Virus record (IMG/VR): IMGVR_UViG_3300044796_000401
Length of the DNA: 64,000 bases
Source: a virus
Lineage: Duplodnaviria; Caudoviricetes
Strand: one strand, 5' to 3'
Shown here: positions 60,322 through 64,000 of the stretch, piece by piece
How the letters are laid out: each line of letters opens with the position of its first letter
Numbering within the stretch: position 1 is the first letter of the stretch
Notes under the pieces: model-generated
What the model was told of the DNA's origin: nothing
Databases searched by the model: none
The model's input: only the letters and a program-made list of their open reading frames with translations
Position numbers and translations under genes: made by a program

Positions 60322-60534
60322 CTAATGCTTCTCGGGTATGCGGATTCGATTGATGTTGAGGAGCCAGCCGAGGATTTTATGGGCTTTTACTCGGGCAACA
60401 TGCTCGGAGATGCCCAAGTCCCCGTGGTGCATGTCCATCAAGACAGCGGTGAGGTTATCGATGGTCCACTTGCTTTGGTACAATTCCATGATTCGCTCAT
60501 CAGTGAGCTTGACTTCTTCTTCAGGAACGGTCAT
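60322..60534 (-). CDS. Hypothetical protein
   Basis: Start overlaps the end of 60521-60727. Confidence 0.55.
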   Translation of the reverse strand: MTVPEEEVKLTDERIMELYQSKWTIDNLTAVLMDMHHGDLGISEHVARVKAHKILGWLLNINRIRIPEKH

Positions 60535-60727
60535 TAGCATGTCTTCTATCCTTCCCGATTCTGCGCTCGATCTTGTGCTCCTCGCAGCGTTCGCCCCAGA
60601 CGACGGGCTTGCCGCAGAGCTTGGTGCCGAAGTTCCCGGCCAGTTCGGAGCCGTAGGTGTTCCAAACCCGCTCATTATCTGCGGCGTTCTCCCGATCAAA
60701 TACCCATTCCAGGCATCCTTCGTTCAT
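60521..60727 (-). CDS. Small Cys/His hypothetical protein
   Basis: MNEGC...LCGK...RCEEH. Its ATG is the first base outside the right end of the IsrB element. Confidence 0.6.
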   Translation of the reverse strand: MNEGCLEWVFDRENAADNERVWNTYGSELAGNFGTKLCGKPVVWGERCEEHKIERRIGKDRRHANDRS

Positions 60728-61970
60728 CTCTTATGTCGCTGCGGATACCCCCAGTTTTAGCTGTGGGGAGGAAGCAGCGACCCTCCATGTATTGAAAGAC
60801 AAAAACTTCGTGTCTTCTGGCTTGGCTGACTGCGTGAGCCTCTTGCCAGTTGAGACGTCGTGCAAACTGATACGACCCTTGGTTGCGCCGCCCACGTAGC
60901 ACAGCCCGAACTTCGGATGCCGAACCAACGAACCGCGAGAGAAGCCCTCGCTGCGCGTACCGCCATACGGCTTGCGAATATGCCCCTTGGAGAACTGCAA
61001 GCGATGCAACTGGCGGCGGTGCAAACGAATTGGCTCGATGACCATCACGTCGGTGTTGTCTGGCTTCGTGTGCCCGCCAACTTCGTCGTTTGCCATTACC
61101 CAAGAATCAACACAGTGCGCCGAGAAGTCCTCGGACAGTTTGTTCTTGGACTTCTTCAAGCCGTGGGCATCACGAAGTTTCTTCGTTTCCCAGCCCGTGT
61201 TGGTGCGAAGCAAACCCAACTTGCGAAGTTCGTCGTAAAACCACTTCTTGCCAACCTGCAATGGAGAGAACGACTTGTTCCAGCGGCGACCGCCGAAACA
61301 ATGCGCCTTGATGTCCTCGACGCGGAAGTGCGTGACTGGAAAAATCTTTGCCAGTACAACAGCGATGCGAAGTTTCCAACCCCAGCGCGCTTTCGTGCTG
61401 GGTGGTATTCGTCCAATAGAACGATTGCAACGGTTTTGGCGGCACGGCGTGTTGCGATTACGGCGACCCCGGCGCATTTGGCGGCGAGTAGTAACCGCAT
61501 CCTTAACCCAATCCACGGCGTGCGACTCGATGTTGAGATACGTATGCAATTCGGATTTGACCGTAAAGCCTTCCCGCTTGCTGCCTGGGTCAATGGCAAC
61601 GACCACGGGTTGCATCTGTGTATCAGACGGCTGTTGGTTGAGGCGAACGCAGAACACACCCTTCTTGAAGAACGGTGTGGCTTTGCCTGAACGGACCCAG
61701 CGTCGTGCTCTTGCTGGGGTCGTGGGCATCAGCGGTTTTTGTTGCGAATCTACAACTGGTACATATTGCATTAAGCCACCTCTCGGTGTTTGTACTTCCC
61801 TTCGCCACTGACCTGCGGAGAGGTTCGAATTAGGGAAGCGTTCGAACATCCTATTGCCTACCACGGCAGCAGATTCAGTTAACATGGCTAGTCTCGGCTT
61901 ACGTTGTGCTTTCGGATGTGGTTAGCACCCTTGGGTACAAGCCCCTAGCTTTAGCTATGGGGTCCTTGAC
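60728..61970 (-). mobile_element. Non-autonomous IS200/IS605-family OMEGA element (omegaRNA plus isrB, no tnpA)
   Basis: Left end GTCAAGGACCCCATAGCTAAAGCTAGGGGCTTG; right-end hairpin TTCCTCCCCACAGCTAAAACTGGGGGTATCC. Removing the element restores GAG GAG CAA TGA/ATG AAC. Confidence 0.85.
60731..61771 (-). CDS. isrB: IsrB RNA-guided nickase (PLMP, split RuvC, no HNH)
   Basis: 346 aa from MQYVPVVD; KPLMPT, RuvC-I IDPGSK, Arg-rich bridge helix RRQMRRGRR, RuvC-II VED and RuvC-III HCVD, with no HNH between II and III. Confidence 0.9.
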   Translation of the reverse strand: MQYVPVVDSQQKPLMPTTPARARRWVRSGKATPFFKKGVFCVRLNQQPSDTQMQPVVVAIDPGSKREGFTVKSELHTYLNIESHAVDWVKDAVTTRRQMRRGRRNRNTPCRQNRCNRSIGRIPPSTKARWGWKLRIAVVLAKIFPVTHFRVEDIKAHCFGGRRWNKSFSPLQVGKKWFYDELRKLGLLRTNTGWETKKLRDAHGLKKSKNKLSEDFSAHCVDSWVMANDEVGGHTKPDNTDVMVIEPIRLHRRQLHRLQFSKGHIRKPYGGTRSEGFSRGSLVRHPKFGLCYVGGATKGRISLHDVSTGKRLTQSAKPEDTKFLSFNTWRVAASSPQLKLGVSAAT

Positions 61971-61990
61971 TGCTCCTCTGTCTCCCTCCG
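61772..61990 (-). ncRNA. omegaRNA (scaffold about 61970-61780, 5' guide from flank about 61990-61971)
   Basis: GTCAA..CCCC..GGGGCTTG first hairpin, GACTAGCC, GTTCGAA..TTCCCTAATTCGAAC stem and TGGCGAAGGGAA are typical of IscB/IsrB omegaRNA. Guide length is inferred. Confidence 0.8.
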
Positions 61991-62320
61991 CATCAACAGG
62001 TCGAGCCTGTTGCCCTTTTGAAAAACGACCCACGGATTCCCATTGCTCAGGCCGAGCAAAATCAGCACCCGTGCATCCGGCACAAACCTGGTCTGCCACC
62101 CGTAGCTGTCCGCTATCTTGCGGAGGGCGTCCTGCGTCCGGTCGTCCCACTTGCCGGATGGTGGGCCAGGCATGAAGTCGTGGGAGATCAAGACCTTTTG
62201 GATTTCGACGATGCGCTGCGGATCGATCTGCTTCTGCCCCGTCATGGGCCTCTTGGGAGCCGCGCAAAGGGGCACAGCAAAGATTAAAAATAAAACGACA
62301 AACTTAGCTGGGCGTTTCAT
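61955..62320 (-). CDS. Secreted protein with peptidoglycan-binding-like domain
   Basis: Signal peptide (KFVVLFLIFAVPLCA), then IVEIQKVL..H.F..G.PSGKWDDRTQDALR..GWQT..VPDAR.LI.LGL. Confidence 0.7.
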   Translation of the reverse strand: MKRPAKFVVLFLIFAVPLCAAPKRPMTGQKQIDPQRIVEIQKVLISHDFMPGPPSGKWDDRTQDALRKIADSYGWQTRFVPDARVLILLGLSNGNPWVVFQKGNRLDLLMRRETEEQSRTP

Positions 62321-63099: not shown

Positions 63100-64000
63100 T
63101 CAGCGTCTTCCTACCGCCTTAAACCCCAGTAATTCCCCAGCTTCATATCGTTTGTTGATGCCCCTTCTCGCCAGTTCCCTAAAACAGTCTCGACTACAAG
63201 TTTTTGCTCCAGAATGCCTCGGAGTGAAATCGGTGTCACATACAACGCATTTCACTAACTGTCGCCGTCTAGCGTTGCGCTTTTGCCAAACTATAAAACA
63301 TTCCCGCCTACATGTAGTCCTTTTCTTGTTTAGTATTTCTGTCCCACAGACAGCACACGCGGGAATGACCTGGGGGAGGGGCAAGCCGTACTTCTTGCAC
63401 GTTACTAAGTTAGGCATCCATTTATAAATTTCCATCTTTCTTTTCATGGCTTTTGCTAAAGATTCAAGCGATTTAGGCTTCCCCCTGTTGGAGGCGGCTA
63501 TCCGCGATTTTTGTGCTTCAGACATAATGTAGCCCCTACGCGCCCTAGACATATTTTCCCGAATTTCTTCCGTGTAGACCCGCTCTCTGGCCACTTTAGC
63601 TATGCGCTGGCGCTCAGACTCAGGCATGCCCTGTTCTTTTTTGATTCTAGAAAGAAGTTGTTTTTGGGCTTCCGACATTGGCCCTTTGGATTTTCCGCGC
63701 TGCAAGTCACCGATAAGTTTTTTAGTTTTCTCGGAGTGCTTGTAGTTGTCCCTAGCTCTCCGAGTGGCAACATATTTAGAAATTTCTTCTGGAGTTCTAG
63801 TCCGTCCCCTTGTGCCCTGCTTCACGTAAGGCAGGCTGTTGTATCCGTTTTTATAGGCGTCAAGACGATCAATCCAATATTGCTCCCGCACTACCAACAC
63901 GGCTGGATCGCATTTCTCTAAAACCAGCCATTTCCAACTATCGGGACCGTGCTTGCACCAAGCTCGAAGAAGCTTAGTGCCTGTGTGTTTTCTAGATTTC
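63100..64000 (-). CDS. GIY-YIG homing endonuclease (5' end outside the window) with NUMOD3 and CxxC..C repeats
   Basis: Frame open to 64000: ...LLRAWCKHGPDSWKWLVLEKC...REQYWID..NGYN; HSEKTKK/MSEAQK motifs and two CAVCG..CSR units. Confidence 0.85.
   Translation of the reverse strand, partial: KSRKHTGTKLLRAWCKHGPDSWKWLVLEKCDPAVLVVREQYWIDRLDAYKNGYNSLPYVKQGTRGRTRTPEEISKYVATRRARDNYKHSEKTKKLIGDLQRGKSKGPMSEAQKQLLSRIKKEQGMPESERQRIAKVARERVYTEEIRENMSRARRGYIMSEAQKSRIAASNRGKPKSLESLAKAMKRKMEIYKWMPNLVTCKKYGLPLPQVIPACAVCGTEILNKKRTTCRRECFIVWQKRNARRRQLVKCVVCDTDFTPRHSGAKTCSRDCFRELARRGINKRYEAGELLGFKAVGRR

Follow-up and report, generated by a model that had tools for sequence, protein, structure and literature searches.

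An intact IsrB OMEGA element with a HEARO-like guide RNA between two small genes of a tailed phage

The DNA considered here, hereafter the window, is a stretch of 64,000 nucleotides from a virus of the Caudoviricetes (IMG/VR record IMGVR_UViG_3300044796_000401), and the part of it that concerns us, in which all genes lie on the minus strand, holds a non-autonomous transposon of the IS200/IS605 type (ISC/OMEGA; 60728..61970, minus strand, 1243 bp) set between two phage genes, an upstream gene A and a downstream gene B. The transposon consists of the DNA for an omegaRNA scaffold followed by a single gene, isrB. The phage setting proposed in the first-pass annotation is borne out by a tail sheath encoded in the window (phrog_2839, E 3.5e-23; Pfam Phage_sheath_1C) and by the presence of the window sequence on contigs of 241 and 270 kb. 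Just upstream of the locus, at 63100-63999, is a GIY-YIG/NUMOD3 nuclease gene; past the window end in the same direction, as read from contig L015, is a gene for an intein-containing UvrD helicase, and GIY-YIG genes are again among the neighbours. Judged by its annotated genes, the neighbourhood appears rich in selfish nuclease genes. IMG/VR holds many further IsrB loci, some of them on contigs of more than 400 kb, and IsrB is therefore not rare in phage-like contigs; our search of the literature found no paper treating the subject.

The isrB gene (60731..61771, minus strand) comprises 346 codons and a TAA stop, and some gene callers extend its start to 61885 (ORF 60731-61885). Its product matches the RRXRR family of Pfam (PF14239, E 4e-35) and an unannotated PHROG family (phrog_32617, E 3.6e-50), and the structure of DtIsrB (8DMB) aligns over residues 3-341 (E 3.8e-35), collinearly and without insertion, in an alignment that takes in the PLMP strand, the DPG, ED and HxxD motifs of RuvC and the arginine-rich bridge helix. 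The PLMP domain is present as KPLMPTTP at residues 12-19, aligned to the PLMP strand of DtIsrB, and the three RuvC motifs are kept as IDPGSK (D61), VEDIK (E152) and HCVDSW (H219 and D222), with all four of these residues invariant in a family alignment of six relatives that are 59-63% identical. Pfam places no HNH family between RuvC II and RuvC III, the solved IscB proteins align to the first ~120 residues only (~190 in one case), and the NCBIfam IscB model covers residues 6-155 only. Since the match to DtIsrB runs the full length of the protein, the matches to IscB are partial and the HNH domain is missing, the protein is an IsrB and not an IscB. Compared with DtIsrB it is similar in size (346 versus 353 amino acids) and has the same order of domains, namely PLMP, a split RuvC with the arginine-rich bridge helix, and a C-terminal motif-reading domain, neither protein having an HNH domain; the match in sequence is remote (E 3.8e-35), and the window's element is carried by a phage whereas DtIsrB comes from Desulfovirgula thermocuniculi. 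In a tree of IsrB proteins the window's sequence has a long branch and is grouped, with a support of 0.86, as sister of a clade that is mostly cellular; viral and cellular sequences are intermixed in this tree, and no donor lineage is resolved by it. In a collection of phage genomes from GenBank the sole IsrB match is distant and lies in an uncultured phage of 485 kb.

Directly upstream of isrB, and overlapping its ribosome-binding site, the element encodes the structured RNA that accompanies IsrB proteins. We assign to it a HEARO-like scaffold (61772..61970, minus strand) of ~180-200 nt, a short variant without one variable stem-loop, which is also missing from several relatives. Rfam returned no match at gathering thresholds; at permissive settings HEARO (RF02033) was the sole Rfam match in the 64-kb window, on the minus strand at 61790-61970, with an E-value of 6.5e-5 in a 2-kb search and of 0.0021 over the whole window. 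The match runs from model position 1 to 211; the window has no counterpart of one long model helix, and the score of 34.4 bits, against a gathering threshold of 83 bits, does not make the RNA a member of the Rfam family. The omegaRNA models to which the first-pass annotation had pointed thus do place a HEARO start (model position 1, GUCA) exactly at 61970, the first base of the element, but with a score below Rfam's threshold; the RNA is predicted to act like a HEARO/omegaRNA, yet it is no HEARO by Rfam's own measure.

Because the thermodynamic fold of the single sequence is uninformative, being no better than that of shuffled sequences (z = -0.44), we judged the structure by covariation. IMG/VR supplied at least 105 loci with relatives of IsrB and bacterial genomes, those of cyanobacteria for the most part, at least 578; in 120 of 168 loci GTCA and a C-rich hairpin stand ~200-250 nt upstream of the gene, next to unrelated 5' flanks. 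From an alignment of 41 sequences (the window and 40 non-redundant relatives, at an identity cut-off of 80%), RNAalifold predicts 32 pairs, with compensatory double changes in 28 of them. Cells of this alignment pair in 94.9% of cases, but in 35-44% once the pairing partners are displaced by 1-3 columns; the displaced controls give covariation scores of 0.08-0.14, where the predicted structure gives 0.72, and not one of 500 shuffles reaches the observed values. Of the 32 pairs, 27 are kept in the window itself; at the remaining five the alignment shows gaps, or the first hairpin, which in the window folds as 8 bp with a bulge, is displaced by one base. Searched as an exact 27-nt pattern, the hairpin retrieved only another, IscB-type omegaRNA family. 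Five IMG/VR loci (L028, L030, L032, L033 and L034) carry near-identical HEARO-type omegaRNAs of another family than the window's, with the same first hairpin, differing 5' flanks and no IsrB/IscB-like ORF within the next 1.7 kb; these RNAs may be guide-RNA elements that stand alone in viral contigs.

The predicted guide (…GGAGGGAGACAGAGGAGCA; 61971..61990, minus strand) is formed by the last bases of gene A and borders the scaffold on its 5' side, the arrangement known from DtIsrB and the one that the first-pass annotation had proposed in assigning the guide to the left flank; we infer a length of 20 nt, and over that length the sequence is unique in the window with 3 mismatches allowed. DtIsrB itself works with a 20-nt guide and an NTGA motif (Hirano et al. 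2022, PMC9581776). In both systems the guide RNA is encoded upstream of the nuclease with the guide at the 5' end of the RNA (PMC9581776), and in both an NTGA-type motif stands 3' of the target, the window's ATGA being assigned from the conservation of flanks and not from an assay. The DtIsrB scaffold, at 262 nt (PMC9581776), is the longer of the two and retains the variable stem-loop.

The ends of the element are laid out as in IS200/IS605 transposons, with similar subterminal hairpins in place of inverted terminal repeats, of which there are none. At the omegaRNA end the hairpin occupies 61942..61962 (minus strand; 8 bp, one bulge, loop TAAA) and folds as predicted; at the other end it occupies 60748..60768 (minus strand), within the last codons of isrB and at a position common to the relatives. 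The two 21-nt stretches, which make up direct-repeat family D3, are 86% alike in direct orientation and are inset from their respective ends by 8 nt and 20 nt. No target-site duplication is present at the flanks. On the left, GTCA is kept across relatives despite unrelated flanking DNA; on the right, the copies that make up multi-copy families in single genomes are similar up to and including ATGA and then diverge. The boundaries originally drawn at 60728 and 61970 agree with both observations. The ATGA (60724..60727, minus strand; TTCAT on the plus-strand flank) is at once the start codon of gene B and, by the conservation of flanks, the target-adjacent motif: it follows the hairpin by 20 nt in the window and by 18-21 nt in 56 of the 93 non-redundant relatives scored. 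Its earlier description as the flanking motif is therefore upheld, as it comes directly after the right end in most members of the family, and insertion beside a fixed short motif is a further trait of IS200/IS605 elements that both the window and most relatives display. The element contains no gene for a Y1 (HUH) transposase, TnpA; the HUH...Y motif is absent from all six frames of the 64-kb window, by a motif scan that is a weak test, and the window contains no second copy of the element. With the catalytic residues, the pairing of the RNA and both hairpins all kept, the element is intact, as had been claimed for it, and its identification as an IsrB OMEGA element is secure. The class of element is known; what is added here is a clean example from a phage, together with a family-wide pattern of start codons to which we return below.

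The two flanking genes make it possible to reconstruct the site as it was before insertion. Gene A (61955..62320, minus strand) encodes 121 amino acids with a signal-peptide-like N-terminus and a weak match to PG_binding_1, under the curated cut-off; its protein ends ...RRETEEQSRTP, and its last four codons and its stop lie within the element. Gene B (60521..60727, minus strand) is intact, encodes 68 amino acids beginning MNEGCLEW, and has its ATG 3 nt past the isrB stop, the order at this joint being TAA, GAG, ATG. Deletion of 60728-61970 fuses ...GAGGAGCA to ATGAACGAAGG, creating a CAA-TGA that overlaps the ATG of gene B. Five homologues of gene A on other contigs (P0002-P0006, 64-78% identical) all end ...E(E/D)Q-stop, so that the SRTP tail in the window is an extra provided by the element, in accordance with the element-supplied stop (EEQSRTP*) of the first reading. 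In three relatives (L011, L012 and L013) gene A ends ...GAGCAATGA or ...GAACAATGA, with its stop overlapping the next ATG (CAATGA); that ATG opens a gene X of 61-68 amino acids, which is followed by gene B, and in L011 gene B starts ATGAACGAAGGA, the same as in the window. Gene X (MTYR.TSINGETATVE...; L011:876-1067, L012:513-698, L013:1714-1920) is missing from the window and from L009, the contig whose gene A protein is nearest to the window's. In L009 the element is absent, gene A ends CAA-TAA, and a 47-nt spacer leads to a gene B homologue that is 77% identical. The predicted stop and the CAATGA are thus real features of the gene A family, and genes A and B can adjoin; to judge by gene content in these relatives, the A/B junction appears to be a hot spot for the gain and loss of genes.

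Overall, we believe that the ancestral insertion site was most likely the overlapping stop and start (CAATGA) of two small co-oriented genes, cut between CA and ATGA. The boundary and the site are beyond chance because five independent gene A homologues stop after the Q, the GTCA is conserved in relatives whose flanks differ and ATGA follows the right end in most of the family; the insertion site may be called well supported on these comparisons, and the exact ancestral junction a reconstruction. That junction occurs in none of the relatives examined. The protein collection, the JGI metagenome contigs and IMG/VR yielded no near-identical allele without the element, and neither a degenerate pattern for the empty junction nor gene A as a query gave a match in the JGI metagenome contigs or IMG/VR. 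Of the empty site as first reconstructed, then, the predicted stop (5/5 homologues) and the CAATGA (three relatives) stand, but a near-identical allele without the element was not met with; relatives that lack the element do exist, but they are diverged, and in them gene A is followed by a different small gene or by the 47-nt spacer. Insertion at this point would be tolerated, since gene A gains just four residues and gene B keeps its ATG, and the survival of both neighbours, another element of the first reading, is seen in the window itself, with gene A four residues longer and gene B intact.

The presence of gene X between A and B in L011-L013, where A and X meet at CAATGA and gene B opens with ATGAACGAAGGA in the case of L011, together with the variable gene content from A to B among the relatives, could also be read as the trace of a replacement. 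The ancestor would then have had the order A-X-B, a break at the A/X junction (...GAGCA|ATGA) would have been followed by recombination of the element from a donor phage, and the repair would have deleted X. We consider this quite improbable: L009, the nearest relative by its gene A protein, has A and B adjacent without X, a plain single insertion takes fewer events, and the gene A ends of the relatives differ from the guide at 5-6 of its 20 positions. In L009 the motif itself is altered, with ATAA in place of ATGA, and so, whether for these 5-6/20 mismatches or for want of the motif, none of the known relatives would be a target. A single insertion into the stop/start overlap thus remains our preferred account of how the element came to lie between genes A and B.

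Close relatives of the element are found elsewhere. An IsrB at least 90% identical (in a 336-aa form; L198-L202, JGI metagenome contigs) follows a gene for the small terminase (Terminase_2) in phage-like surroundings that are not those of the window, within an element that shares 81.5% DNA identity with the window's and has different flanks; this copy may split a gene, since its flanking ORFs join in frame once the element is removed. Relatives that are 76-87% identical occupy three further sites, followed by ATGA at two and by ATGG at one. Copies from 76% to more than 90% identical are therefore present at four other sites, as expected of a transposon, and the lineage has been mobile recently, since its close relatives occupy several other sites. 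In L195 (2876-3921) an isrB that is 81% identical is broken into ORFs of 55 and 306 amino acids, probably by a frameshift; ATGG and not ATGA follows it, and it lies ~2 kb downstream of a toxin-antitoxin pair of the RelE/MqsA type.

Near-identical copies of gene A occur on more than 24 contigs from several projects, all of them with the start of the element and with identical DNA wherever they can be compared, and all except one, the hybrid L021, read as full element to their limits. L021:875-1165 (an ENA BUCK21 scaffold, 2 samples) carries gene A, the omegaRNA and the first 37 nt of isrB. Its gene A/RNA part is 99.8% identical to window positions 62793-61737; at its right end are a different 50 nt, then ATGA and a DUF2201 gene, which normally stands after a MoxR-type ATPase gene (L022-L026), and the 351-aa DUF2201 protein of L021 has no exact-sequence record. 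L021 represents either a mini-element of ~286 nt that has no gene, or else a hybrid that arose in assembly by way of such an element; in the former case, with an omegaRNA and a right end and no nuclease gene, it would be comparable to the PATEs, the gene-less derivatives of IS200/IS605 elements. Two independent assemblies (L016 and L019) end at window position 60725, 3 nt past the element, and L018 ends at 61871, inside the RNA gene. Taken with L021, these ends suggest repeated or polymorphic element ends in the sampled communities, or else artefacts of assembly.

These observations bear on whether the element does anything at all in its present host. It might be a passive passenger, inserted once without harm and now simply inherited, with IsrB and its RNA perhaps made and of no use to the element in this phage, for want of a transposase and of an empty target. 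Such a history would fit the fact that only filled alleles are known, 100% identical across many samples, as well as the failure to find an empty allele in the protein collection, the JGI metagenome contigs or IMG/VR, the absence of a Y1 transposase motif from the window and the presence of a single copy there. Against it, the element has kept its ORF, its catalytic residues, the pairing of its RNA and its two hairpins intact, close relatives of this recently mobile lineage lie at several other sites, and contigs from several assemblies break at the ends of the element. On balance we regard mere inheritance of this kind as unlikely.

We think it probable, rather, that the locus holds an intact, non-autonomous IS200/IS605 OMEGA element, installed at a CA|ATGA stop/start in a giant tailed phage, which would be kept in place by a cycle of nicking and repair. 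The steps of the cycle can be proposed by analogy with DtIsrB and with GstIscB/TnpB. No sigma-70-like promoter was found in or before the element, and elements of the IscB type are co-oriented with their upstream gene; the RNA is therefore most likely produced by read-through from the operon of gene A. Transcription of the phage operon would run through the element, and the RNA would be processed to a ~20-nt guide, from the end of gene A, and the scaffold. The complex of IsrB and RNA would recognise only the element-free junction, in which a match to the guide is followed by ATGA, and would nick the displaced strand ~8-11 nt before the ATGA; the occupied junction would be immune, because GTCA and not NTGA comes after the guide sequence. 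Within a replicating pool of phage genomes the nick would break the fork, and repair from an occupied copy would re-install the element, either after its excision by a Y1 transposase acting in trans or in a co-infecting sibling that lacks it. Gene B would continue to be translated by coupling, its ATG lying 3 nt after the isrB stop.

GstIscB, from Geobacillus stearothermophilus, offers a close parallel for such a cycle. Both elements are non-autonomous members of IS200/IS605, with a guide RNA that is encoded upstream of the nuclease gene and bounded by the transposon end, and both point the same way as the gene upstream of them. GstIscB has TTCAT as its wild-type motif (Meers et al. 2023, bioRxiv 10.1101/2023.03.14.532601), the same five bases that are found on the plus strand of the window, and the donor joint of GstIscB is the target of its nuclease (bioRxiv 10.1101/2023.03.14.532601), to which the reconstructed joint in the window may be likened. 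In the established model for TnpB and IscB, an occupied copy serves to repair the break at a site that the element has left or does not occupy (PMC13565253; bioRxiv 10.1101/2023.03.14.532601). The two systems differ in that GstIscB has an HNH domain, cuts both strands and has a known partner transposase, whereas the window's IsrB is a predicted nickase for which no transposase was found.

By the same analogy, it is plausible that the element homes into sibling phages that lack it. Cas9 and Cas12 descend from OMEGA nucleases, whose natural role, to our knowledge, has been demonstrated only for chromosomes and plasmids of bacteria. IsrB only nicks, and we know of no demonstration of homing driven by an OMEGA nickase. 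A nick is nonetheless enough for homing in a phage, as the nicking homing endonuclease I-HmuI of SPO1 illustrates. The window's element shares with I-HmuI, and with SegF and Mob, the placement of a nuclease gene between two conserved phage genes and the prospect of cutting only those genomes that are without it; it differs in that its target would be recognised by RNA and is, in the manner of intron homing, interrupted by the element itself. SegF and Mob are free-standing homing endonucleases of phage T4 (PMC13565253), and homing into co-infecting phages has been raised as a theoretical possibility for OMEGA nucleases (review PMC13565253). The killing of competitors by protein-guided phage homing nucleases is also documented (review PMC13565253), and the window is crowded with free-standing nuclease genes, the GIY-YIG/NUMOD3 gene among them. 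One might therefore suppose that the nickase mainly harms co-infecting relatives that lack the element, helping its carrier to outcompete them while the element itself is little copied. We find this very improbable, as a single nick makes a weak weapon, and as the sites of the relatives are mismatched to the guide, at the positions noted above, or lack the motif, as in L009.

Regardless of the specific route by which the element moves, its choice of site is not peculiar to the window. We reconstructed empty sites for 64 independent insertions for which one set of rules sufficed to place both boundaries (from survey loci L035-L194), and took as a control the other ATGA sequences in the same flanks. 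The flanking ATG opens an ORF of at least 40 codons in 52/64 insertions, compared with 31% of the controls (binomial p ~1e-16), and in 39/62 it lies within 20 codons of an upstream in-frame stop, and so at the start of an ORF, compared with 8.6%. Coupled junctions, in which the TGA of the motif also ends the upstream ORF, account for 10/62, compared with 5% (p 0.001), and are distributed as 7/21 on IMG/VR contigs and 2/42 in cellular genomes, the window being the tenth case. The stop of isrB is the motif's own TGA in six loci (4/21 viral and 2/42 cellular), and the gap from that stop to the ATG is usually short in viral loci and ~46-47 nt in the cyanobacterial copies. The coincidence of motif and gene junction that the first-pass annotation remarked on in a single phage can thus be seen across the family, in a broader form, the usual site being a start codon. 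That HEARO elements insert before ATGA or GTGA was reportedly noted already in the original description of HEARO by Weinberg and colleagues in 2009.

A more far-reaching model might also be considered for this clade of IsrB, one in which ATGA serves both as the landing motif and as the recognition motif, so that insertions fall just ahead of start codons or into stop/start overlaps, translation is handed on to the host gene, and the nickase, in tightly packed phage genomes, would convert siblings without the element in the course of co-infection, as a homing drive that does no harm. We offer this tentatively, as a possibility that we hold to be less likely than not. For homing in phages the locus is a clean test case: its parts are intact, its target can be written down, and its insertion is silent for both neighbours. 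If the model is true, it would be the first natural RNA-guided homing between phages. The siting of the elements at start codons and stop/start overlaps suggests how they may persist in gene-dense genomes, and the family pattern could aid the prediction of motifs and guides for new IsrB enzymes.
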